DNA of 64,000 nucleotides from Parcubacteria group bacterium M10-OD1-1 (GCA_003056145.1 LSNL01000003.1:4345-68344), one strand, 5' to 3'; numbered from the stretch's first letter, positions 5,336-40,313 are shown. A program made the numbers and translations. The notes: generated by a model from the letters alone, not told the origin.

Positions 5336-5439
5336 TATGAAAGACAGATTTTGTTGAAAGAATGATGCAGATGAAATGTGCTTGTTGACACAACTTAAAA
5401 TGATTAAAAGTTGTTAATCCAAGTTTTTATCTTCATCAT

Positions 5440-6640
5440 TCTCTCAATAAAGAGGAGAGAGAAGCTGTTCTTTATATCGAAATAAAATGCTGAAAATATA
5501 TACAAGACCTGCAAGCCTTGTCACTGTGTTGGATAGGTCGCCTTTCGACGGAAACCGATTGCCAATGGCACATTTTACAAATCGTTTTCGTAAGGAAATC
5601 GACTGGGAGTGAAGACTTGAACTATCTTCGCTTTCAGAAATTTCCTTATGAGCGCCTTGTTGTTTAACTCGCTGTGAGTACAACAAGACAATCTAGAGGA
5701 AAATGCTCTTTGAAAAAAAACAAAATCATCATAGGAAGCTATCACGATGGTTTTGTAAACAAAATTGGTACTTGGCAGATAGTCTGTTTGGTTACCGAAA
5801 AAATCAGGGCTAACAAATGCCCCCTTGCCGACATTTTCATGGATGTCGTGATAGCCGAGGTTTCCTAAGGAGGAAATATCATGAATCAAAGAAATACTGG
5901 GAAGGAAGTAGTGTCCTTCCTCTGGAAGGAAGAAGGACTTGATGCGATTTTTTCCGGTGTGTCGTTTAACGACACACCGGACGGCAACGTTTGCACCTTT
6001 CTTTTTAGAAAGCAAGGTGTGAACGACGTACCGATATATTATCGGTACGAAATATTTGAACGACGCGACAGGCGTCGTTCAAAAGGACTGATTTTGACAT
6101 TACTCTTTACGAGTAATGTCAGGTCTCGGGTTGAATGCGTTTCCTTTCTAAAATTTTTAGAAAGGAATGGCCTACTCATCAGAAGGGCTGATGGCCCTGC
6201 TGATGAGTACTATGCCGACCCAAGGTTTATCACCTGTCCGCGCTTTGTGCGGATAAGTGATAAAATGTCTTTGCATTCAGAATTGTTGACCCTGACAAAT
6301 GGGGAAACAATTCTAGTAGAAATCTGGGCTCACTACCCAGAATACGAAGATGAAAATGAAGGAGACTTCCGTATAAAAAACATATGCTGGTTCCCAAAGG
6401 GGCACCATAGTTTTGATACGGAGGAAAATCCTGTAATATTCGCAGGTTTCCTGCGAATATGCCAAAACGGTAATACCGTCTTTGTAGACGGTATTTATTT
6501 CAATAACCGTGGAGGGCGCCACGGTATAATCGAAGAAGCAATTGACACACCAACGGCTACCGAGTAACCCTCGGCTAGTCGACAAACGTCGAGAGGTCGA
6601 CACTAAACAAACCCCCGAGCGACGGTAAGACGCGTTCATG
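5440..6640 (+). ncRNA. hairpin-dense tract of unknown function, candidate large structured RNA or hairpin array. The strand is uncertain; plus is suggested by the downstream plus-strand terminator.
   Basis: At least 25 local inverted repeats, many perfect 9-13 bp with 3-7 nt loops. Examples are 5955-5981 (11 bp), 6027-6049 (10 bp), 6057-6081 (10 bp), 6095-6121 (11 bp), 6141-6167 (12-13 bp), 6436-6460 (11 bp), 5656-5690 (8 bp) and 5832-5851 (6 bp). GC is higher than the flanks. The chance expectation for perfect 9+ bp hairpins in about 1 kb is far below one. Confidence 0.45.
5881..6567 (+). CDS. doubtful ORF (228 aa) overlapping the hairpin-dense tract; probably not a real protein gene
   Basis: Long ORF with an apparent SD aaggagg, but that SD is itself the hairpin tttcct-aagg-aggaaa. 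The ORF is saturated with perfect hairpins, its composition is rich in F and R, and overlapping ORFs occur on both strands, consistent with stop-codon depletion in GC-richer DNA. Confidence 0.2.
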   Translation: MNQRNTGKEVVSFLWKEEGLDAIFSGVSFNDTPDGNVCTFLFRKQGVNDVPIYYRYEIFERRDRRRSKGLILTLLFTSNVRSRVECVSFLKFLERNGLLIRRADGPADEYYADPRFITCPRFVRISDKMSLHSELLTLTNGETILVEIWAHYPEYEDENEGDFRIKNICWFPKGHHSFDTEENPVIFAGFLRICQNGNTVFVDGIYFNNRGGRHGIIEEAIDTPTATE

Positions 6641-6694
6641 AAATAAAATTATCTTGGTGTGAGTCCACCTAAAAACTCACTGCAGAAAGTACTA

Positions 6695-6739
6695 GGGGAT
6701 GAGCTTTCTGTAAGTTCAAGTTCAATCATCCCCTTTTTT
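6695..6739 (+). terminator. intrinsic terminator-like hairpin
   Basis: Stem ggggatga (6695-6702) / tcatcccc (6726-6733) with a 23-nt loop, followed by tttttt (6734-6739). Confidence 0.4.
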
Positions 6740-6999
6740 CCGAAATCATCAGTTTGTTAAAAATTGGTGGTTTCAGAGAAAAGATGCTCTTTGAAAAAAA
6801 TCTACAATACCGCAAATTGGTTGTGAATATTTGAATGTGGGATTGTTTAATTGACAACTAATTTGCAGTATTGTAGAAAAAATCCAAAGCCGGCAGGGTG
6901 TCGGTGGAGGGTAAATATTAATTTGTCTGATGCAATAATGCTGAGGACAACGGCGATTTTTCGCCCCCTAACTCCGGGGCTCGGAGTGGAGGAAGTAAG

Positions 7000-7644
7000 A
7001 TGTCCAATCAAGTGATAACTTTTGATAAAGTTGTGTCTGAGGTGGTTGCCAGCAAGGCAATTAAAAGAAATAAATATAACATCTGCCGCACCTGGCATGG
7101 ATGGATATCGAAAGACGTCCTACATATTACTAGTAGCTCCGGGGCTCGGCGGCGGAAAATTTGGCATTTCCCTATTATAAGGAATGCTGGAAAGGAGATG
7201 TTTTTTAAAAACACGACGGTAACTGCTGATTGCTGGACAGTTATTCCGGCAAAACAAGAAAAAGATCCTTATGGGAGGATTTTGAGACAGTGTAAACAAT
7301 CAAAAAAATTTCTCCACAGACATCAGCCTGGAGAAGTTGTCTATCTCAAAGGGAGATGGGCATATCTTCACTGTCATGTCCCGGGAGAGTCATCGTTTTA
7401 TGTTTCGTTCGATTCGGATGAGACGATCTTCGAAGGGCCCCTGATAAATGTTCCTGGGGGGCATTTTCAATATCAGGATTGGGAAGTGACGCTGTCCAAG
7501 TCCACTTGGGCAGTTGTCAGAAAGGCGCATGCCGATTCAAACGGTCGCGTGCGTAACTTTATCGAGGCTCTCCATATTTGGGGAGAGCCGGATATAGAAG
7601 AGGTTGCCTCCGCTGTGAGGAGAGGAACATTTGGGAGGAGTTAA
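7000..7644 (+). CDS. hypothetical protein (214 aa), uncertain, within the GC-rich insert
   Basis: ATG preceded by ggaggaag SD at -7 and a hairpin actccg-gggct-cggagt. Fewer perfect hairpins than the upstream tract, and a terminator-like hairpin downstream. Composition is W/H-rich and random-like, and I recognise no family. Confidence 0.3.
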   Translation: MSNQVITFDKVVSEVVASKAIKRNKYNICRTWHGWISKDVLHITSSSGARRRKIWHFPIIRNAGKEMFFKNTTVTADCWTVIPAKQEKDPYGRILRQCKQSKKFLHRHQPGEVVYLKGRWAYLHCHVPGESSFYVSFDSDETIFEGPLINVPGGHFQYQDWEVTLSKSTWAVVRKAHADSNGRVRNFIEALHIWGEPDIEEVASAVRRGTFGRS

Positions 7645-7659
7645 AAAGCGGACTTTTGT

Positions 7660-7700
7660 GCAGGATTGATGATTAGTTCTCATTCAATCCTGCCTATTAT
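7660..7700 (+). terminator. terminator-like hairpin downstream of ORF 7000-7644
   Basis: Stem gcaggattga (7660-7669) / tcaatcctgc (7684-7693). The downstream U-tract is weak. Confidence 0.3.
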
Positions 7701-8227: not shown

Positions 8228-8317
8228 TGGCGGAGGCGGGAGGATTCGAACCTCCGATACCGGTTAAGGTATAACGCTTTTCGAGAGCGCCCTATTCAAC
8301 CGCTCTAGCACGCCTCC
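8228..8317 (-). tRNA. tRNA-Ser (anticodon CGA), type II with long variable arm
   Basis: The reverse complement reads GGAGGCG...CTAG/D-loop...anticodon stem GCGCT/AGCGT with loop CTCGAAA (anticodon CGA)...long variable arm...GGAGG-TTCGAAT-CCTCC...CGCCTCC-G-CCA. The CCA is encoded. Confidence 0.8.
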
Positions 8318-8467: not shown

Positions 8468-9049
8468 ATGTTAGAACAGGAGGAAAAATCAATTCATCAA
8501 TCTTTAGGAGTAGCTAACTCTTTTAAGTTTTTAAGTCCTCAAAAAATAGTTGATCAAATTGAGGTTAATCCAGGAATGAAAATAGCTCATTTTGGTTGCT
8601 CTACTGGTTACTTTACTTTTCTATTAGCTCAAAGAGTTGGAGGTAGTGGTCAGGTTTATGCTCTAGATATTATATCTTCTAAACTAGAAATTTTAAAGAG
8701 CCAGATTAAATTACAAGGAATTAGAAACATTGCAATAAAAAGAGTGAGTTTAGAAAATAAGAATGGTTCTGGCTTGGAGAATGAAAGTATGGATTGGGTA
8801 ATAATGGTTAATATGTTATATCAAAATAATCAAAAGAATAAAATCATCAAAGAAGCAGAGAGAGTCTTAAAACCTGGTGGAAAAATTCTTTTAATAGACT
8901 GGGAAACAGGAGACGATAGAATTGGACCAAAAAAACTTTCACGAATTTCTAAAGGAGATTTAATTAAAATAGTCAGAAGATACAGTTTAGGAATTAAAAA
9001 AGAAATTGAAGTTGGAAATTTTCATTTTGGACTAATACTAGCCAAATAA
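8468..9049 (+). CDS. class I SAM-dependent methyltransferase
   Basis: 193 aa. Motif I-like GCSTGYFT and VYALDI, and the post-I region KPGGKILLIDW, which is the methyltransferase type 11 fold. Confidence 0.65.
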   Translation: MLEQEEKSIHQSLGVANSFKFLSPQKIVDQIEVNPGMKIAHFGCSTGYFTFLLAQRVGGSGQVYALDIISSKLEILKSQIKLQGIRNIAIKRVSLENKNGSGLENESMDWVIMVNMLYQNNQKNKIIKEAERVLKPGGKILLIDWETGDDRIGPKKLSRISKGDLIKIVRRYSLGIKKEIEVGNFHFGLILAK

Positions 9050-9054
9050 AATAT

Positions 9055-10482
9055 ATGACATTAAAAACAAAAAAAAGTAAAATATTTTTCGCTACAGTTT
9101 TTATTTTTGGATTGATTATTTTATCTGGCTGTGGTTTCAAACAAAAAACAGATCATCAATATAATTTAAGTTTAGAAATCTGGGGTCCTTTTGATTACGG
9201 GGATGCTTTAAGAAAAGTTTTTAATAGTTATAAAAAAATAAATCCTAATATTTCTAGTCTTGAGTATAAAAGAATTCCAATTAATACTTATCAAAAAGAA
9301 TTAACAGAAGCTTTAGCAGCAGGACAGGGTCCAGATATTTTCTTTATTCGTAATGACTGGGTACCGAGTTTTGCAGATAAAATAGTTCCTGTTAAAGAAA
9401 TTCCAGGGGTTATTAGTGAGAAAAAGTTTAGAGCTAATTTTATAGATGTAGTGGCTAATGATTTTTTAGTTAAAGGAAATATCTATGCGATGCCTCTTTC
9501 GGTAAATACTTTGGGTTTATATTATAATAAAGATCTTTTTAATCAAGCTGGCATAGTGGCACCACCAAAAACTTGGGATGAATTTTCTGAGGATGTCAAA
9601 AAACTTACTAAAATTAATGCTTTTGGGGAAATAATTCAATCAGGAGCAGCTATGGGGACAGCTTATAATATCAATCGTTCTACGGACATATTAAATCTCT
9701 TGATGTTGCAAAATCAAACTAAAATGATTGATCCACGAGGACAAGTGCTTTTTCAAAAATCAATTTCTGAAAATGGAAAAAGTATTTTTCCTGGAGAAAA
9801 CGCGCTAGCTTTCTATACTCAATTCGCTAACACTAGTTCTCCAGAATATACTTGGAATTCTCAGCTGCATGATTCTATTGATGCTTTTTCTGAAGGAACA
9901 GTTGCGATGATGTTAAATTATCCTTGGAATGTTAAGGTTATAAAAGAGAAGGCACCGAAGCTTAATTTTGCCATTGCACCAGTTCCTCAAATAAAAGATA
10001 AGCCAAAAGTTAATTTTGCTAATTATTGGGGACTAGCGGTTTCTAAAAATAAGACTCCTCAAAGTAATCCATATGGACAATCTAAAAAAGCAGTGGTAAT
10101 TAGTAGTAATACTCGGTTAAAAGAAGCTTGGACTTTTTTAACATACTTAACTACTAAGCCAGATGGAACTTTTAATAATAAGGCTAGTACAAAAGTTGGG
10201 CAAGTTACAGAAGCTAATTTTGATCCTGCTAAAAGTTGTTTAACTCAAACCGGTGAACCAGCTGCTAGGCGTGATTTAATTAAAGAGCAAAAAGATAATC
10301 CGACTATTGGTGTTTTTGCAACAGATAATTTAATTGCTCAAAGCTGGATAGAGGTTGATCCTTCTTCTATTGAGTCAATTTTTGCTGAAATGATTGATCA
10401 AGTTAATAAAGGACAGGCAACAGTGGCTGGAGCTATTAAAACAGCCGCTCAAAGAGTTCAAATATTATCCAATAATAATTAA
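9055..10482 (+). CDS. ABC transporter extracellular solute-binding lipoprotein (family 1, sugar-type)
   Basis: 475 aa. Signal peptide plus lipobox LSGC and an SBP_bac_1-like sequence. No permease or ATPase is adjacent. Confidence 0.65.
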   Translation: MTLKTKKSKIFFATVFIFGLIILSGCGFKQKTDHQYNLSLEIWGPFDYGDALRKVFNSYKKINPNISSLEYKRIPINTYQKELTEALAAGQGPDIFFIRNDWVPSFADKIVPVKEIPGVISEKKFRANFIDVVANDFLVKGNIYAMPLSVNTLGLYYNKDLFNQAGIVAPPKTWDEFSEDVKKLTKINAFGEIIQSGAAMGTAYNINRSTDILNLLMLQNQTKMIDPRGQVLFQKSISENGKSIFPGENALAFYTQFANTSSPEYTWNSQLHDSIDAFSEGTVAMMLNYPWNVKVIKEKAPKLNFAIAPVPQIKDKPKVNFANYWGLAVSKNKTPQSNPYGQSKKAVVISSNTRLKEAWTFLTYLTTKPDGTFNNKASTKVGQVTEANFDPAKSCLTQTGEPAARRDLIKEQKDNPTIGVFATDNLIAQSWIEVDPSSIESIFAEMIDQVNKGQATVAGAIKTAAQRVQILSNNN

Positions 10483-10486
10483 AAAA

Positions 10487-11410
10487 ATGAAAAACCTTAT
10501 TAAAAAAGTTCCTCTAATCTTTAGCACATTATTAATCAGTAGCCTCTTTCTTTTTTTTGGAGTAGCTAACTCGCAAGCTTCTACTGCTGAATGTACTGCT
10601 CAAGGAGGTATCTGCGCTACAGTAGGAGGAAGTGGTTGTTTAAGTGGTAGCCCTATTGCAAATATAACTTGTTCTGGTGGGGTAACTTGTTGTACGAATG
10701 TAACTCCTAAGAGTTCTACTATTTGTTGTCAGGTCTCTGGACAAGGTTGCGGAGAAATTAACGGAAGCACTTGTCCAACAGGAATGAATTTTTTAGGTAC
10801 TGGTTCTTGCTCTAGCTTTTCTGCCTGCCAAATTAAGACTTCAACAGGGTCTTCTGCTAATACTAATAATGGGAATTCAATTACTTTTTCTAATCCGATT
10901 GGATTTACTACTTTTGCTGGCTTATTGAACTCCATTCTAAATCATATGATGGGTATTATTGCTACTATTGCAATAGTCTTTATGATTCTGGGAGGTATAA
11001 TGTATATGATGTCTGGTGGCAATGAAGGAATGGTAACTAAAGCTAAAAAAACTTGGACTGGAGCTATTATTGGTCTAGCGATTGCGTTGGCTTCGCCAAC
11101 TTTTTTAAAGGAAATTCAAAAAATTCTTAATGGAGGAGGAACAGGAGGGAGCGCTCAAGCTTGGGTAAGTAAAGCGTTAACACTTAAAGAAATTGCTATT
11201 AATGTTGCTAACCTATTGTTGTCAATTTTAGGTATTCTTGGTATAATTGCCTTAATAATTGGAGGTGGAATGTATTTAACTGCCTATGGTGATGAAAGAA
11301 AAATTGATACTGGAAAAAAGATAATCACCTTTGCGATTATCGGTATTGTCGTAGCTCTCTCAGCAGTTATTATCACCAAACAAGTTTCCGTTATTTTAGG
11401 AGCAAATTAA
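10487..11410 (+). CDS. secreted Cys-rich protein with duplicated TrbC/VirB2-like pilin-family C-terminal domain
   Basis: Start chosen at the internal ATG 10487 (MKNLIKKVPLIF..., signal peptide). About 20 Cys in the N-domain, then two copies of the motif hydrophobic helix-GG-MY(L/M)-G-(D/N)E-K-hydrophobic helix, as in the three downstream paralogs. Confidence 0.5.
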   Translation: MKNLIKKVPLIFSTLLISSLFLFFGVANSQASTAECTAQGGICATVGGSGCLSGSPIANITCSGGVTCCTNVTPKSSTICCQVSGQGCGEINGSTCPTGMNFLGTGSCSSFSACQIKTSTGSSANTNNGNSITFSNPIGFTTFAGLLNSILNHMMGIIATIAIVFMILGGIMYMMSGGNEGMVTKAKKTWTGAIIGLAIALASPTFLKEIQKILNGGGTGGSAQAWVSKALTLKEIAINVANLLLSILGILGIIALIIGGGMYLTAYGDERKIDTGKKIITFAIIGIVVALSAVIITKQVSVILGAN

Positions 11411-11478
11411 ATTAGAACAAAAGAAAGTTTAATAGGATAGTTAAAAAATAAATATACAAAATAGAAAGGAGGTGTTAT

Positions 11479-11832
11479 ATGAAAAATAAAATTAGAATAA
11501 TGATTTTCTCAGTAGCCTCAACTACCTTGACTTTTCCAGCTTTGGCTTTAGCTCAATTTAGCGCTCCTGCCGGAACTGGACTACCTGTTAATTCAGTTTA
11601 TGATATTATTTCAGGAATAATGTTTTGGTTGTTGGCAATAGTGGGGATAGTGGGTGTTATTGGTTTTGCTATTGCAGGAATCCTCTACTTAACAGCAGCG
11701 GGAGATGATTCTAGGATTCAACAGGCCAAAAGTGCAATGCTCTATTCTATTATTGGAGTAATTGTAGCTTTATCTGGTTTAGTAGCAATCCATTTTGCTA
11801 GCGGGTTATTAGGTGGTCAAAGGCAATTCTAA
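11479..11832 (+). CDS. TrbC/VirB2-like pilin-family small membrane protein
   Basis: 117 aa. Signal peptide and conserved core WLLAIVGIVGVIGFAIAGILYLTAAGDDSRIQQAKSAMLYSIIGVIVAL, which is two transmembrane helices around an AGD motif. An RBS aaaggagg lies upstream. Confidence 0.5.
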   Translation: MKNKIRIMIFSVASTTLTFPALALAQFSAPAGTGLPVNSVYDIISGIMFWLLAIVGIVGVIGFAIAGILYLTAAGDDSRIQQAKSAMLYSIIGVIVALSGLVAIHFASGLLGGQRQF

Positions 11833-11952
11833 TTAAAGAATTCTTTGAAATTTCAAAACAAAAACAGATTGTTTTAATAGTCTGTTTTTGTTTTTTGTTT
11901 TTTTATTGTATAATATAAGCGAGGTATTATTAAATAAATTTAAAATAAAAAA

Positions 11953-12348
11953 ATGAAATATTTGAAATTAGGAATTCAAAAAATAAAGCAAGGGAGATAT
12001 TTATTAGGTAGTTTTTTTGGACTTAATCTTAATTCTTCTAGTGGAGGTGGAGGGAACGGTAGTGGTTGGAATCCAGGGAGTCTTAGTCAATTCAATCTTC
12101 CTAATGCTTCTATTTATAGTATTATAGAAAATATTTTAAATTGGTTATTGGGTATTTTGGGAATTATTGGAGTAATAGGTTTTGTGATTGCTGGAATTTT
12201 TTATTTAACAGCAGCTGGAGATGAATCTCAAATTACTAAAGCTAAAAGTGCTTTGAAATATTCTATTACGGGTGTCATCGTGGGAATAGCTGGTCTAGTG
12301 ATTATTCAAGCAGTTAACGCAATGCTTAACGGAACTTCTCTTTTTTAA
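11953..12348 (+). CDS. TrbC/VirB2-like pilin-family small membrane protein
   Basis: 131 aa. Gly/Ser-rich N-region and the same conserved C-terminal core (NWLLGILGIIGVIGFVIAGIFYLTAAGDESQITKAKSALKYSITGVIVG). Confidence 0.5.
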   Translation: MKYLKLGIQKIKQGRYLLGSFFGLNLNSSSGGGGNGSGWNPGSLSQFNLPNASIYSIIENILNWLLGILGIIGVIGFVIAGIFYLTAAGDESQITKAKSALKYSITGVIVGIAGLVIIQAVNAMLNGTSLF

Positions 12349-12352
12349 ATTT

Positions 12353-13039
12353 ATGAAAAATCTTACTAAAAAAATTATAAAAAACTTAATTAACTATAAT
12401 AATAAAATATACAAAGTATTTTTTTTTAGTAGTTTTATTCTAGGAGTCAGTCTTTTTTTTGGAATAAATATTTCTCAAGCAGACTATATTTGTTTAAATC
12501 AGAGTAGCGCTTGTAGTGGTAATTGGGCTGATATTAACGCTTGTGGTGTAGGTGTTTGTAGTACAGGAGAAAAATGTTGTTCAATAGCGACAAAAACGAG
12601 CACGAATACAAGTACAAACACAAATTCTTCTACACCTAGCAAAGCAGGTAACACTTGGAAAAATCCAGATAATGCAACTTCCAATTCTAATGCAGTCCCT
12701 ATTTCTTTAGGTAATCAAAATAATAATACTTCAGCTAATAATGTTTCTGGAAGTGGACAACTTAATATTCCAACATTTAATCTTCCTAACCCACAAGGAG
12801 GAATTAAAGAAATTGCTCAAAATCTATTGAATTGGTTGTTGGGTATTTTGGGTATTATAGCGATAATCTCTTTTATTATAACTGGTTTACAATATTTTAT
12901 GGCAGCGGGAGATGAACAAATAGTTCAATCAGCTAAAAAGAACATGACTTATTCTATTTTAGGGATTATTGTGGCTCTCTCAGGCTTTATAATCATTCAA
13001 GCTATCGATGCAGCCTTACGAGCTACATCATTCTTTTAA
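12353..13039 (+). CDS. TrbC/VirB2-like pilin-family protein with Cys-rich and Thr/Asn-rich N-terminal region
   Basis: 228 aa. Signal peptide, Cys cluster (CLNQSSACSGNWADINACGVGVCSTGEKCCS), TSTNTSTNTNSS low-complexity linker, and the same C-terminal pilin-like core. Confidence 0.5.
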   Translation: MKNLTKKIIKNLINYNNKIYKVFFFSSFILGVSLFFGINISQADYICLNQSSACSGNWADINACGVGVCSTGEKCCSIATKTSTNTSTNTNSSTPSKAGNTWKNPDNATSNSNAVPISLGNQNNNTSANNVSGSGQLNIPTFNLPNPQGGIKEIAQNLLNWLLGILGIIAIISFIITGLQYFMAAGDEQIVQSAKKNMTYSILGIIVALSGFIIIQAIDAALRATSFF

Positions 13040-13049
13040 TCAGTTTTGT

Positions 13050-13078
13050 TTGACATTCTTCAAAAAAAATGCTAGAAT
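13050..13078 (+). promoter_or_regulatory. sigma70-like promoter upstream of nusA
   Basis: TTGACA (13050-13055), 17 nt, TAGAAT (13073-13078). A GAAA-tetraloop hairpin lies downstream at about 13100-13130 in the leader. Confidence 0.45.
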
Positions 13079-13164
13079 GAAAGTGTTAGTTAATGGAGAT
13101 AAAGGGTTCGCGAAAGCGAACTTTATTTGTTAAATAGACCTATTTTAATTTTTAATAAAATCTT

Positions 13165-21992: not shown

Positions 21993-22498
21993 CAAAAATA
22001 AAAAAACTCTGGACTGGCTCTGGAGTTTTTTTCTTTCTGTTAGTAGAATGGAGGATTGAATAGATAAATACAAACTAGAAAAGATACAAAAGAATTTTTA
22101 TAGAGAACGCTGATAAATTTGAGTAAGTGGGAATTTGGCATTAGCTAGAACAATGAGATTGAATTTATTGAGGCGAGATGAAACTTTCTTGACACTTAAA
22201 AGGTTGTTTAAGCTTTTGTTATTTTAGAGTAAAAATAATATTTGAAATAAATTATTGTACGAAAAGTAGTAATGGTATTTTATTAAGGGAGATGATGTTA
22301 TAATCTGTATTTAGAATAAAGTTTTAGCTAGAATAAGGTGTAAATATTAAGCTATTCTTTGGGTGAGGTGATAAAAGCTTGACAAGATTTTGTTTATCTG
22401 CTAGGGTGAACTTTAAAGGTATAAAAAAGAAAGTTATTTAACAATCATTGCCTAGGAAGGAGTTTCCTGGGTTAAAAAACTAAAAAAGGAGAGCGGTT

Positions 22499-23347
22499 AT
22501 GAAAAAAGAATTGTTACTGGTGTGTCTGGTGTGTTGTCTAATGGTTTTTCCAAGTCAAAGTTTTGCTGATTCGTCAGGCGTTGGAATCGCTGGCGCTCAG
22601 GCTGTTATTAACGGAGGGGATGTCCAGGTGAATCCTGGGCAAGTTGTGTCTCCAAGTGCGAATGCGAATCTGAGTATCGATTCGCATTCGAAAGTGAGCA
22701 ATCGTAATTTTTTGCAGACGGGATATCCAGCGGCCCCAGCGCCGATGACTTACTTTGGCCCCTGGAAAAAGGGACTACCGTATAATGTAATCCAACTTGC
22801 AGTTGGATCGGTATGGAAGTGGGCAGGAATGAGGAAGGTATCTTCCAGTAGTGCTAAAGCACTGTTAGAAGATATCCAACATCCATTTCCGCCGACGGCA
22901 GAAATAAAAGTTGTCTCCCCTGAGAAAGGGGAGGGAACCTTTGTCGGCAATATTGTTGTCCTAGTTGACAGCAATCAAGCGAGCTTTAACGCTCGCAACA
23001 TAGCTCTAAAAGTAGCCATGAAGGCTGGTGCCGACCAGCTGGAAATCTATTCCAACAATTACATTCAGAAGCCAACTAGCTCTGGTTGGCATTTCGGTTT
23101 TGGCGGTGGTGCCTCGGGCATCATCGGCAATGATAGCACATCAATTGCAGGCTCAGGAGGAACCGGATTTGGATCCTCCAGCCTTCATTTGGCGAGCCTT
23201 CCATTTATTAAGGCCCGTCTTTGGAGGTCAGCTACTGCAGTTGATTTGGCCAGCGTCAGCGAAGACGAAAGCTATGCACCGGCGGTCAAAGCCAAATCTT
23301 CTAATGAGGATTGGCATATAAAAGACTTAAGTAATTTTGACAATTAA
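22499..23347 (+). CDS. secreted protein of unknown function (GC-rich, likely horizontally acquired)
   Basis: 282 aa. Signal peptide MKKELLLVCLVCCLMVFPSQSFA, SD ggagag upstream, and a Gly-rich C-region. Composition contrasts strongly with the flanking AT-rich genes. No family recognised. Confidence 0.5.
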   Translation: MKKELLLVCLVCCLMVFPSQSFADSSGVGIAGAQAVINGGDVQVNPGQVVSPSANANLSIDSHSKVSNRNFLQTGYPAAPAPMTYFGPWKKGLPYNVIQLAVGSVWKWAGMRKVSSSSAKALLEDIQHPFPPTAEIKVVSPEKGEGTFVGNIVVLVDSNQASFNARNIALKVAMKAGADQLEIYSNNYIQKPTSSGWHFGFGGGASGIIGNDSTSIAGSGGTGFGSSSLHLASLPFIKARLWRSATAVDLASVSEDESYAPAVKAKSSNEDWHIKDLSNFDN

Positions 23348-23472
23348 CAAAAAAGGAGGTGATTTTCAGAATTTTCAGTAAGTAACACGAGTAACATAAC
23401 ATTCTCCATTCCTAGTTGGGATGGAGGTAATTATGGGACATTCCCGTGTCCCGAACAAAAAAGGAGAAAGTC

Positions 23473-23901
23473 ATGAAAAAGATGTTATCAAAAATGGCAG
23501 TATCGATGTCAATTATTGCCCTGATTATGGTTGCCATCCCGGCTCTTGCCCAATCAGGAGGAAGTGTGGAGGGAGGTAATTCGTCCTGGCTGTCAGGCTT
23601 TGATAATGGCATTACCCACATCTCGGCCAATCAACGATCCTGGCAACAGACAGTTATCCAGGTACCCGGTCAAACATTTAACGCCGTTTCAAACAGCAAC
23701 ACCGGGTTCCAGCTGAATGCTGCCGATGGCGTAGCCGCCGCCGAAACAACTACAGATATAGGTTTTTACACTAATTCTAGTGGAAACCTGGGAGCCTTTT
23801 CTGATGCCAATGTGGCATCGATCGCTGCAGGTAACGCCATGAGCATTACCTGGGCAGCCTCAAATTCTTCCCTGAGCCAATATGGTGGCGGGGAGCGATA
23901 G
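23473..23901 (+). CDS. secreted protein of unknown function (GC-rich)
   Basis: Start set at ATG 23473 (MKKMLSKMAVSMSIIALIMVAIPALA signal peptide) with SD aaaggag 7 nt upstream. The listed ORF begins at an upstream GTG. A strong terminator follows. Confidence 0.45.
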   Translation: MKKMLSKMAVSMSIIALIMVAIPALAQSGGSVEGGNSSWLSGFDNGITHISANQRSWQQTVIQVPGQTFNAVSNSNTGFQLNAADGVAAAETTTDIGFYTNSSGNLGAFSDANVASIAAGNAMSITWAASNSSLSQYGGGER

Positions 23902-23919
23902 TCTAAAGGTTCTGCTGAT

Positions 23920-23960
23920 GCCACCAAGATATCTAATATCTTGGTGGCATTTTTTTTTAT
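23920..23960 (+). terminator. intrinsic terminator
   Basis: 12-13 bp perfect stem gccaccaagatat / atatcttggtggc with a short loop, followed by a run of 9 T. Confidence 0.7.
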
Positions 23961-39447: not shown

Positions 39448-39704
39448 GAGCGCGACATATTGCGCTGATTGTTAAAGCCTTGATCATTATTTTTGGTTAA
39501 GGTTTTTTATTATGAAAATAATATAAGTTGTTTTCTAAAAGTCAGATTATGCAAGATTTTCACTTTTTCTTTTCGCATTTTCTTGCGGGAAATTGTCGGG
39601 TCTGTTAGAATAATTGTGACGTAAGATTATCTCCTAGGGTTTGATTGTCCAATTCATTGGAGCAATTGAAGCGGGAGTTTTTAATTAAATTAAATTTTAA
39701 AAAT

Positions 39705-40313
39705 ATGAAAAATCATCCATCAAAAGAAAGAACATTAGTAATTATAAAACCAGATGGAGTGCAAAGAACTTTGATTGGTGAAATTATTAAGAGATATGAA
39801 AGAGTAGGATTAAAATTAATAGGGATTAAAATGCTAGTAGCCCAAGAGGATTTTATTGAAAAACATTACACTCTTGATCCACAGTGGAGAAGGGTAACTG
39901 GAGAAAAAACTATCGAAGGCTATAAAAGTAAAGGGTTAACTCCTCCTTCCGAAGATCCTTTGGCAATTACGGAAAAGATTTTAGTTGGATTAAAAAAATA
40001 TATGACTAGTGGTCCAATCATTGCTATGGTTTGGCAAGGTGCTAATGCAGTCAAATTAATTCGTAAAATTACTGGAGGAACAGAGCCATTAACTTCTGAT
40101 GTTGGTTCTATTAGAGGAGATTTTGTAGTTGATTCATATAAAATTTGCGATGAAGATAATCGATCAGTTAGAAACTTAGTTCATGCTTCTGGCTCAGTAG
40201 AAGAAGCAGAAATGGAAATCAACCATTGGTTTAAAAAAGAAGAAATTATTGATTATCGTTTGGTACAAGAGCAAATTCTTTATGATGTCAATTTAGACGG
40301 TATTTTAGAATAG
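39705..40313 (+). CDS. ndk: nucleoside-diphosphate kinase with internal insertions
   Basis: Start set at the internal Met (MKNHPSKERTLVIIKPDGVQR). NDK motifs IKPDG, MTSGPIIAMVWQG, IRGDF and active-site NLVHASGS are present, with about 35-aa and about 10-aa insertions relative to canonical NDK. The listed ORF begins 60 nt upstream. Confidence 0.65.
   Translation: MKNHPSKERTLVIIKPDGVQRTLIGEIIKRYERVGLKLIGIKMLVAQEDFIEKHYTLDPQWRRVTGEKTIEGYKSKGLTPPSEDPLAITEKILVGLKKYMTSGPIIAMVWQGANAVKLIRKITGGTEPLTSDVGSIRGDFVVDSYKICDEDNRSVRNLVHASGSVEEAEMEINHWFKKEEIIDYRLVQEQILYDVNLDGILE

Follow-up and report, generated by a model that had tools for sequence, protein, structure and literature searches.

A tandem array of four VirB2-like pilin-family proteins with a fused double core in a Moranbacteria genome

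Introduction

Tandem arrays of VirB2-like pilins are an established feature of Patescibacteria, published in 2023 and 2025 (PMC10633639, PMC12102498). With PF18895 and PF04956 together serving as the models for cataloguing these pilins, Quiñonero-Coronel et al. (2025; PMC12102498) reported 383 Patescibacteria assemblies that carry them in arrays of 2-11 genes, an array being defined as at least two PF18895 or PF04956 genes placed in tandem or with one non-pilin gene between them. Ca. Southlakia epibionticum ML1 cannot do without its pilin array (Wang et al., 2023, PMC10633639; PMC12857230).

Two further groups of proteins invite comparison. Classical TrbC/VirB2 pilins, including A. tumefaciens VirB2, RP4 TrbC and F TraA, are small proteins in which a signal peptide precedes a pair of long hydrophobic helices joined by a short polar loop. 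The pilin-like proteins Mbov_0395 and MMCAP2_0565 of Mycoplasma ICEs, represented by NCBIfam model NF045849, are single-core and ICE-borne, and the system of which they form part, that of wall-less monoderms, is of the MPF-FATA type.

The locus described here lies in a 64,000-nucleotide window, the whole stretch of DNA analysed, from the genome of Parcubacteria group bacterium M10-OD1-1. It resembles the Patescibacteria arrays in its phylum, in PF18895 membership, in the tandem arrangement of divergent paralogues that combine a Sec-type signal with a two-helix core, and in its probable association with a relaxase-poor, MPF-FATA-like type IV secretion system (T4SS). It differs in belonging to Moranbacteria (Paceibacteria), whereas the published arrays are reported to be most abundant in Microgenomatia and Saccharimonadia, and in not adjoining virB4, unlike those arrays. 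It is further distinguished by a fused double core, by slots that are orthologous across species, and by expression signals of gene 2 that resemble those of a major subunit, none of which was found mentioned in the literature on Patescibacteria VirB2 arrays. The locus is a well-preserved example of an array type already described in Patescibacteria rather than a new system.

Organisation of the array

Four adjacent open reading frames occupy positions 10487-11410, 11479-11832, 11953-12348 and 12353-13039 of the plus strand, separated by gaps of 68, 120 and 4 nt and located between a solute-binding protein (SBP) gene and nusA, confirming the four consecutive genes that an earlier reading of the DNA from its letters alone (the sequence-only reading) had placed at 10487-13039. 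The C-terminal part of each protein is a hydrophobic core of two helices flanking an (A/G)G(D/N)E...AK loop, in keeping with the A-G-D/E motif described by that reading. All four pass the Pfam model PF18895 (T4SS_pilin), genes 1-4 scoring 64.4, 40.0, 46.4 and 42.8 bits against a whole-protein gathering threshold of 26.6 bits, with E-values from 1e-17 to 4e-10. The architecture of PF18895 proteins, namely an export signal, two hydrophobic helices and a short polar loop, recurs in genes 1-4. Signal peptides had been assumed throughout; this holds for genes 1, 2 and 4, while the signal of gene 3 is weak. The predicted Sec signal peptides have AxA-type cleavage motifs, with the endings SQA, ALA and SQA. 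As four adjacent PF18895 genes, the locus falls within the published definition of a Patescibacteria VirB2 array. The array was found in 171 species-level genomes and is therefore no chance pattern.

The cores of genes 2-4 are 40-58% identical to one another, so that the highly conserved core of the sequence-only reading stands for these three genes; it does not extend to gene 1, whose two cores share 28% identity mutually and 18-44% with the cores of genes 2-4. Paralogues in the published Patescibacteria arrays have a mean identity of 25% and a maximum of 54% (PMC12102498), compared with 18-58% among the present cores.

Type IV pilins (PilA-like, T4P) were considered and rejected. The array proteins carry ordinary Sec signal peptides rather than the class III prepilin leader, in which cleavage after G precedes F/M and xxxE, and their core is C-terminal and made of two helices instead of the single N-terminal hydrophobic helix of T4P.

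Genomic context

Upstream of the array on the plus strand are a class I SAM methyltransferase gene (8468..9049; Pfam Methyltransf_31/25/11), mentioned for context only, and the gene of a lipoprotein SBP (9055..10482; SBP_bac_1, weakly MalE-like, 115 bits in Pfam, lipobox LSGC), for which NCBIfam yields only weak carbohydrate-SBP matches. The methyltransferase gene directly precedes the SBP gene in nearly all related loci. Between the SBP gene and gene 1 lie 4 nt, and the SBP gene is conserved as a neighbour in each of the three locus layouts; no ABC permease was found near it. Since the whole region from IF2 to NusA is syntenic among relatives, a functional coupling of the SBP to the array is speculation that is inseparable from inherited synteny. 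In about 8 loci, a LepA-like gene stands between the SBP gene and the array.

Homologs of VirB4, VirB6 and VirD4, which the sequence-only reading had suggested seeking elsewhere in the genome, are absent from the 64-kb window, and in most relatives no T4SS ATPase or channel genes occur within 10 kb of the array. Because the machinery genes are missing from these surroundings, T4SS coupling in M10-OD1-1 is putative. In relatives, one gene order comprises the methyltransferase, SBP, pilin, double-core pilin, PrgI, TrsD and VirB4 genes (L099-L101; 6 of 80 related species loci), followed after VirB4 by ComM ... LysM-CHAP and, further on, TrbL/VirB6. The pilin gene directly before PrgI/VirB3, TrsD and VirB4 in the intact clusters is of the double-core type, and the succession of pilin, VirB3-like and VirB4 genes in these Moranbacteria relatives is reminiscent of the virB operon. 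According to PMC12102498, such machinery genes are to be expected close to dnaA/ksgA. VirB4 is widespread across Moranbacteria at 75-92% identity, and the TrsD-like protein adjoining it in relatives also matches the NCBIfam model of the Mycoplasma ICE VirB4.

Relationship to VirB2/TrbC and other families

When a diverse profile of the core was aligned by hhalign with seven genuine VirB2/TrbC proteins, a weak match with a probability of 54-58% and a pairwise E-value of 1e-4 was obtained, extending over 62 columns and both helices in register; the reversed control remained below 1%, and a narrower gene-2 profile reached 18-33%. None of the array proteins passes PF04956 (TrbC; gathering threshold 27.9 bits), the best being gene 2 with 17.1 bits (E 0.0065). 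Among gene-2 relatives, 28 of 112 match PF04956 at E<=0.01, compared with 46 of 112 for the spurious membrane family Cyt_bd_oxida_II, while PF18895 is passed by 112 of the 112 family members. Neither the core profile nor that of the gene-2 family retrieved a solved pilin from the PDB. The closest NCBIfam model is NF045849 (Mbov_0395 pilin-like), the best match there for all four genes, which covers 61-73 of its 80 positions and scores 30.5, 27.1, 36.7 and 36.3 bits, below the curated cutoff of 40 bits.

The proteins share with TrbC/VirB2 pilins their signal peptide, two long hydrophobic helices and short polar loop and, for mature gene 2, the small size, along with the weak in-register match across both helices. 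They differ from them in scoring below the PF04956 threshold, in having no detectable similarity to solved pilins, and in a loop of the acidic and basic type GDE...AK where VirB2 has a G-R-A-S type. Classical VirB2/TraA pilins are not known to have large N-terminal modules or a second core, unlike some members of the array. TrbC/VirB2 pilins belong to T4SSs of diderms, whereas the host of the array is thought to be monoderm (PMC12102498). The likeness to the Mycoplasma ICE proteins lies in the probable T4SS type; the array proteins differ from them in being chromosomal and multi-paralogue.

Could the proteins belong instead to an unrelated family of small membrane proteins, resembling pilins by hydrophobic composition only, for example as uptake partners of the SBP? 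The SBP gene is the constant upstream neighbour of gene 1 in all layouts and has no permease nearby, spurious membrane-family matches are as frequent as those to PF04956, and the automatic names of JGI label some relatives as transporter subunits. Yet the PF18895 scores lie far over threshold, the VirB2 profile match is stronger by two orders of magnitude than the reversed control, and in relatives PrgI, TrsD and VirB4 directly adjoin the array; moreover, the SBP adjacency may simply be inherited with the IF2 ... NusA synteny and is interrupted by the LepA-like gene in the loci noted above. Such an identity is accordingly judged very unlikely. Because of the PF18895 matches, the VirB2 profile match that outperforms its control, and the gene context of relatives, the assignment of the four proteins to the type IV secretion pilin family as VirB2-like members is supported. 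The TrbC/VirB2 call of the sequence-only reading is thereby upheld at the level of PF18895, which shows the anticipated Pfam similarity to a pilin family, and of the T4SS context in relatives, while the scores for PF04956, the TrbC model itself, stay below threshold.

Gene 1 and the fused double core

Gene 1 (10487..11410, plus strand) encodes a double-core pilin-like protein of 307 aa, whose 64.4 bits for PF18895 derive from two matched stretches. A predicted Sec signal peptide (10487-10579) is followed by a 12-Cys module (10580-10834), by a Ser/Thr/Asn linker that ends in an invariant FxNPI motif (10835-10894), and by core a (10895-11143, residues 137-219) and core b (11165-11407, residues 227-307). 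The core is indeed present twice, as had been proposed, but the module described as having 20 Cys contains 12, and that of gene 4 contains 6. AlphaFold2 predicts four long helices at residues 143-175, 180-214, 233-265 and 270-303 with pLDDT of about 90, whereas the N-domain stays below 55. A search with the 12-Cys module alone against 1.84 billion representative proteins returned only two low-complexity false positives, and no family was detected for it; Pfam is blank also for larger Cys-rich relatives.

The double core is retained in more than 120 homologues of gene 1, and proteins of this type occur in 171 species-level genomes; within this analysis they turned up in Moranbacteria/Paceibacteria only. 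An identical copy of gene 1 lies on a contig of 273,852 bp. A gene 1 relative, L073, exceeds the PF04956 threshold with 32.8 versus 27.9 bits. The 'Rosetta stone' idea, according to which adjacent single genes in some genomes correspond to the two halves of the double core in unfused form, was rejected, as only a few bits set the class scores of those genes apart from the scores for other classes; the genes appear to make up a class of their own, marked by an LVPCG...C(T/S)LCH motif. A literature search on Moranbacteria pilins and on Cys-rich or fused VirB2 found no description, and neither the fused double pilin nor the fixed order of the slots seems to have been described.

Gene 2 and its expression signals

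The minimal pilin-like protein of 117 aa is encoded by gene 2 (11479..11832, plus strand; PF18895 40.0 bits). Its predicted signal peptide (11479-11553) would be cleaved between ALA and Q, leaving a mature protein of about 92 aa, and its core spans 11575-11829. AlphaFold2 models it as a hairpin of residues 39-72 and 77-113 with pLDDT of about 90. Homologues number 648, the best 120 of which are 58-99% identical, and the family alignment contains 22 invariant columns among 112 sequences. Between genomes, core identity is highest for this gene, at 69%.

A strong Shine-Dalgarno sequence, AAAGGAGGTG, precedes gene 2 at 11465..11474 on the plus strand, whereas genes 1, 3 and 4 have A-rich leaders with no strong Shine-Dalgarno, a contrast repeated in five of five genomes compared; across the 80 species loci, a strong Shine-Dalgarno accompanies 55% of class-2 genes versus 0-14% in the other classes. 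Directly 3' of the gene, at 11855..11905 on the plus strand, lies a hairpin with a T-run resembling an intrinsic terminator, with an 18 bp stem at 11855-11894, and an equivalent hairpin, AAACAAAAACAG...CTGTTTTTGTTT, stands behind the position-2 gene in four other genomes. It is followed, before genes 3-4, by an extended -10 promoter-like element, TGTATAAT (11907..11914, plus strand), recognised by consensus match only, the counterpart of which at the same place in L006-L009 reads TGTGGTATAAT or TGGTATAAT. A candidate promoter for gene 2 within gene 1 (11219-11247) was set aside, being found in only three of five genomes and overlapping conserved codons.

Gene 2 looks like a candidate major subunit because it is the smallest and most conserved of the four, alone has a strong Shine-Dalgarno, and precedes a conserved terminator and promoter. 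This division into putative major and minor subunits is drawn from expression signals and conservation. Chaperone-usher and type IV pilus operons offer a working analogy, in which the gene of a small, highly expressed subunit has a terminator or attenuator behind it and low-expression paralogues bear extra contact-making domains, although the folds of the proteins and the machines that assemble them are unrelated.

Genes 3 and 4

Gene 3 (11953..12348, plus strand; PF18895 46.4 bits) encodes a pilin-like protein of 131 aa, the N-region of which is rich in Gly/Ser (GGGGNGSGWNPGSLSQFNLP) and the core of which lies at 12091-12345. In the M10-OD1-1 genome its signal peptide is weak, with a short hydrophobic stretch, while that of its orthologues is normal, and a GGW.xG.L..F.LP motif is common to the gene 3 orthologues. 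Gene 4 (12353..13039, plus strand; PF18895 42.8 bits) encodes a pilin-like protein of 228 aa, composed of a long predicted signal peptide (12353-12481), a 6-Cys module of the pattern C-x7-C-x9-C-x4-C-x5-CC (12482-12583), a Thr/Asn/Ser-rich spacer (12584-12781) and the core (12782-13036). The Cys cluster is followed by TKTSTNTSTNTNSST; these repeats and the Gly/Ser-rich region of gene 3 had both been recognised correctly. Orthologues at position 4 contain 0-31 Cys and range from 117 to 459 aa. Beyond gene 4, consensus scanning alone marks a promoter-like site for nusA (13050-13078) upstream of a terminator-like hairpin (13103..13124, plus strand).

Orthologous slots and variation

A set of slots consisting of a double core, a protein of about 118 aa, a Gly-rich protein and one with a long N-domain is common to many of 80 related species loci. 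Identity between genomes is 51-69% at the same position, compared with 25-54% across positions, and in a neighbour-joining tree 1a, 1b, 2 and 4 cluster by position, with slot 3 paraphyletic to slot 2. The exact order 'SBP 1a+1b 2 3 4 (NusA)' occurs in 10 of the 80 loci and ranks as the commonest once loci truncated ahead of NusA are counted with it, most other loci being close variants; the copy number of slots 2-4 differs among species. On these comparisons, the array is an old, fixed set of orthologous slots.

Two strain variants with 99.1-99.65% nucleotide identity were compared, and four other contigs are 100% identical across the array. Because 24 of the 28 coding differences in the strain variants are synonymous (4 non-synonymous), the array appears to be under purifying selection; none of the changes falls in the Cys modules. 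The N-terminal modules are unlike between paralogues and between orthologues of different species, not between strains, so the hypervariability claimed by the sequence-only reading survives for the first two levels and fails for the third. Likewise, its 'diversified in tandem' does not hold in a recent sense, the positions being cross-species orthologue groups, and the strain comparison it had proposed revealed almost entirely synonymous change in place of paralogue diversity.

These data also bear on whether the paralogues are antigenic-variation or diversity cassettes, kept in tandem for rapid switching or recombination of surface variants. N-terminal modules that differ wholly among paralogues and species orthologues, the variable copy number of slots 2-4, and a published comparison with the VirB2 paralogue arrays of Bartonella and Anaplasma (PMC12102498) speak for such cassettes, but the orthology of the slots across species, the predominance of synonymous strain changes with none in the Cys modules, and the identity of the four further contigs speak against them, and with cores at most 58% identical and unrelated N-domains there is little substrate for gene conversion. 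The antigenic-variation reading is largely contradicted and very unlikely.

Fibre or membrane-bound proteins

The proteins may alternatively be linked to a T4SS and form no fibre, remaining in the cytoplasmic membrane as part of a channel or dock, or as two- or four-helix anchors for surface adhesin modules on a wall-poor, ultra-small cell. The nearest NCBIfam model describes a Mycoplasma ICE 'pilin-like' protein, matched at 27-37 bits, below the cutoff of 40. A conjugative pilus is not known from these wall-less bacteria. In some relatives the N- or C-terminal domains are very large, and with up to 683 aa and 49 Cys they would be hard to pack into a fibre. Gram-positive-type (MPF-FATA) systems normally lack a pilus (PMC12102498; PMC10633639), and a pilus of this kind has so far been visualised in no Patescibacterium (PMC12857230). 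Against a membrane-bound role, gene 2 is domain-free, highly conserved and highly translatable, and an anchor with nothing to hold is implausible; several paralogues in fixed stoichiometric slots also resemble sets of major and minor pilins. Furthermore, the helices, at about 34 residues, exceed a simple membrane span. Helices of this length are typical of filament-forming pilins such as VirB2/TraA. We consider a purely membrane-bound array rather unlikely.

Proposed role and significance

The reading that we favour, and hold to be probable, is that the locus encodes four VirB2-like (PF18895) pilin-family proteins of a Patescibacteria-type, Gram-positive-like T4SS, constituting an old, fixed four-slot set of Moranbacteria in which gene 2 supplies the major subunit and genes 1, 3 and 4 the accessory ones. 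On this reading, the proteins would form a pilus. The hairpins would insert into the membrane so that their two ends face outwards and the short GDE...AK loop faces inwards, like VirB2/TraA pilins, and a VirB4-driven machine encoded elsewhere in the genome would extract and stack them. The domain-free gene 2 protein would be the main building block, with the products of genes 1, 3 and 4 as low-copy accessory subunits whose N-terminal modules (12-Cys, Gly-rich, and 6-Cys with a Thr/Asn spacer) may be exposed on the exterior of the fibre or on the cell surface. A putative function of these modules in adhesion or surface display, suggested by the sequence-only reading, is a reasonable inference, and their differences between species would be consistent with contact with a partner or host.

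The fused double core may serve as a pilin dimer with a covalent link, perhaps in the role of a nucleating, tip or adaptor subunit. A bolder extension, which we regard as distinctly unlikely, holds that the gene 1 type is a covalent VirB2-like dimer forming the obligatory T4SS-proximal element of a Gram-positive-type, conjugative-like Moranbacteria pilus, where it would nucleate or cap the gene-2 fibre and show its species-specific disulfide-rich module to the host, with the SBP perhaps linking the apparatus to the uptake of molecules derived from the host.

The locus leaves the picture of what the Patescibacteria T4SS is unchanged. It provides a clean comparative case, with four fixed pilin slots that are conserved across Moranbacteria, and offers together a domain-free member with major-subunit-like signals, accessory members with disulfide-rich modules specific to the species, and a fused double pilin, from which testable predictions follow on subunit stoichiometry and on which subunit to label or model. 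Patescibacteria rely on other cells, and in the one tractable species epibiotic growth requires their unusual T4SS and the pilin array that goes with it.

The four pilin-like genes and their family

Four consecutive open reading frames, g1 (10487-11410, 307 aa), g2 (11479-11832, 117 aa), g3 (11953-12348, 131 aa) and g4 (12353-13039, 228 aa), lie on the + strand exactly where the sequence-only reading had placed them. Each protein begins with a Sec-type signal peptide, weak in g3, and ends in a core of two long hydrophobic helices flanking an (A/G)G(D/N)E...AK loop. As claimed, g1 carries the core twice (residues 137-219 and 227-307), g3 has a Gly/Ser-rich stretch, and g4 has a cluster of 6 cysteines followed by TKTSTNTSTNTNSST; the 20-Cys module attributed to g1 shrank to 12 cysteines. 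The core had been called highly conserved, which holds among g2-g4 (pairwise identity 58% for g2/g3, 51% for g3/g4 and 40% for g2/g4) but not for the g1 cores, each of which is just 18-44% identical to the rest. With these corrections, the observation stands.

The pilin-family assignment is supported. All four proteins exceed the gathering threshold of Pfam PF18895 'T4SS_pilin' (26.6 bits), scoring 64.4, 40.0, 46.4 and 42.8 bits from g1 to g4, with two matching stretches in g1. Membership of TrbC/VirB2 PF04956 did not survive the Pfam search, in which all four stayed below the threshold of 27.9 bits (best g2, 17.1 bits), and an NCBIfam search of g1-g4 returned only sub-threshold matches of 27-37 bits (cutoff 40) to NF045849, a Mycoplasma ICE 'pilin-like' family. 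Among 112 relatives of g2, 46 matched Cyt_bd_oxida_II and 28 matched PF04956 at E<=0.01. Because hydrophobic hairpins draw such spurious matches, the VirB2 link was tested separately, by setting a profile of 18 diverse cores against seven bona fide VirB2/TrbC genes, taken from MPF-T plasmids on which each lies between VirB1 and VirB3. The profile aligned over 62 columns covering both helices, with a probability of 54-58% and a pairwise E of 1e-4, compared with <1% and E ~0.09 for the reversed control profile; a narrower g2-family profile reached 18-33%. A g1 relative in the related locus L073 passes PF04956 at 32.8 bits, and no pilin appeared among the PDB matches in profile searches. On these Pfam, profile-alignment and PDB results, PF18895 membership is solid, and distant homology of the cores to VirB2 is plausible but weakly shown.

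Gene context and secretion machinery

The deciding evidence is gene context. IF2 and DUF4446, read in one direction, are followed in the other by a methyltransferase, a lipoprotein solute-binding protein (SBP), the pilin array and NusA. This neighbourhood recurs in four long contigs from divergent relatives and across most of a set of 80 species-level loci, which were drawn from the 171 species genomes encoding a g1 relative. No type IV secretion system (T4SS) ATPase or channel protein was found within the 64-kb window. In a minority layout (6/80 species loci and L099-L101), the methyltransferase/SBP slot runs on into T4SS genes: a single pilin, a double-core pilin, PrgI/VirB3-like, TrsD (TraC-like) and VirB4 (PF19044, AAA_10, DUF87), then a 178-218 aa protein, ComM, a G5/DPBB protein, KsgA and UvrD, and finally a Xer-like integrase, LysM-CHAP and TrbL/VirB6. 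This continuation from the same slot indicates that the window's array probably represents the pilin portion of a T4SS locus, parted from its machinery in this lineage.

The T4SS neighbourhood is intact in some Moranbacteria (L099 6672-21397, L101 7418-21833, L089 52-6449), with ComM present as a ComM-like Mg-chelatase; these stretches showed neither a relaxase nor a coupling protein. VirB4 is widespread across Moranbacteria (proteins P0241-P0360), with 75-92% amino-acid identity over 600 residues, versus only ~34-75% for the presumably served pilins of the same clade. The SBP of the window (9055-10482; SBP_bac_1, weakly MalE-like) is an orphan, lacking any ABC permease or ATPase gene in its vicinity. 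It invariably neighbours the array on the upstream side, and does so for the entire T4SS cluster where that is intact, a linkage that may be inherited synteny. Additionally, the titles 'uncultured Bdellovibrionales' or 'Pseudobdellovibrionaceae' look wrong for about twenty MAG records from binchicken and SRP co-assemblies (including L028, L029, L039, L041, L057 and L062), which carry the Moranbacteria-type IF2, DUF4446, methyltransferase, SBP, pilin and NusA synteny.

The window has a low GC content (~31%) and holds housekeeping genes (IF2, RbfA, NusA, trigger factor, ClpP, RNase Y, RpoB/C, FtsK, RecA, EF-G and a ribosomal-protein block); its proteins find their best matches in Candidatus Moranbacteria (CPR/Patescibacteria, class Paceibacteria). 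Two islands of ~41-42% GC (5400-7700 and 22400-23950), adjoining genes for tRNA-Ser (8228-8317, minus strand), tRNA-Pro (21630) and tRNA-Gly (21921), may be foreign insertions. They gave no Rfam match, and their four ORFs (5881-6567, 7000-7644, 22499-23347 and 23446-23901, the last two with signal peptides) matched no Pfam family. The nucleoside diphosphate kinase ORF (39645-40313) is long, at 222 aa, and matches the Pfam NDK domain as two stretches, which suggests an N-terminal extension or insertion.

Age of the array and diversity of its modules

Cores from five genomes cluster by position, with 51-69% identity within a slot against 25-54% between slots. In their neighbour-joining tree the two g1 cores and slots 2 and 4 separate, with slot 3 paraphyletic to slot 2. 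The order of SBP, double core, ~118-aa, Gly-rich and long-N-domain genes (then NusA) occurs in 10/80 loci and is the commonest exact one once loci truncated ahead of NusA are pooled; the other loci mostly contain duplications or follow an alternative layout that ends in the double core. Two strain variants, at 99.1% and 99.65% nucleotide identity, differ at 28 coding positions across g1-g3; 24 of these changes are synonymous, and the other four alter residues of the signal peptide and linker of g1. The array is identical in four further contigs. It is thus old and ordered rather than freshly diversified. The suggestion of tandem diversification for variable display stands only in part: the modules preceding the core are unalignable between species, but the slots are orthologous, and the strain comparison spoke against it.

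Orthologous N-terminal modules retain only scattered Cys, CC and CP motifs. Those of relatives contain 0-49 cysteines in up to 683 residues, some with repeated C-x5-7-C-x6-9-C-x4-12-C-x5-CC units. No Pfam family was found for the modules of the window or its relatives, and a search of 1.84 billion representative proteins with the g1 module alone brought up no real relative. One 518-aa double-core form without Cys modules passes the PF04956 threshold. Such variety suggests that outer domains are swapped modularly on a constant pilin scaffold.

Double-core proteins with very large N-terminal regions occur in L096 (6486-8537), L093, L097 and L073 (7145-8701), the largest having 683 aa, 49 Cys and repeated Ig-like-looking segments. 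An extra pilin-like class, absent from the window, is encoded at L008 9557-9985, L048 8475-9749, L061 7364-7831 and L071 8540-8992 and is marked by a conserved GLVPCG...C(T/S)(L/I)CH directly ahead of the core; the L048 member (424 aa, 40 Cys) continues past its core into a C-terminal domain built from about seven repeats with 6 Cys each.

Inferred division of labour among the subunits

The smallest protein, g2, lacks an extra domain and is the most conserved, with a mean identity of 69% between genomes and 22 invariant columns in 112 sequences. It alone is preceded by a strong Shine-Dalgarno sequence, AAAGGAGGTG (11465-11474), the leaders of g1, g3 and g4 being A-rich; this contrast recurs in 5/5 genomes compared, and over the 80 loci 55% of slot-2 genes have a strong Shine-Dalgarno, versus 0-14% in other slots. 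A terminator-like hairpin of 18 bp, ending in a T-run (11855-11905), lies 3' of g2, followed by a TGnTATAAT element (11907-11914), both kept in the four other genomes. Such a pattern would be expected if g2 were the major structural subunit and the genes behind it supplied accessory subunits at a low level.

Cleavage of the signal peptide would leave the hairpin with both ends outside and its loop inside. The ~25-residue linker between the two g1 cores, like the modules of g1, g3 and g4, is then predicted to be extracellular, which fits disulfide-rich domains. F and T pili offer a model for module position, and by analogy the modules would sit on the outer face of a fibre. A serious rival is that the g1-g4 proteins reside in the membrane without polymerising; their polymerisation and the presence of the machinery in this genome are the two main uncertainties.

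Relation to known arrays

Tandem VirB2-like arrays have been described in Patescibacteria using PF04956 and PF18895, with 441 arrays, each of 2-11 genes, across 383 assemblies, Moranbacteria included, and a mean identity of 25% (PMC12102498). The window shares their tandem PF18895 genes, its core identities of 18-58% comparing with a published maximum of 54% (PMC12102498). In Ca. Southlakia epibionticum the pilin series of a T4SS cluster is essential (PMC10633639), and a recent review still treats the pilus as merely hypothesised (PMC12857230). A metagenomic structure atlas lists PF18895 as the dominant freshwater-specific domain. In these papers and in further literature searches, nothing was found on a fused double core, slots orthologous across species, Cys-rich modules or an SBP neighbour. 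Because tandem arrays of this kind are already published, the window's array adds to a known type of system, of which a few details of this locus merit a specialist's note.
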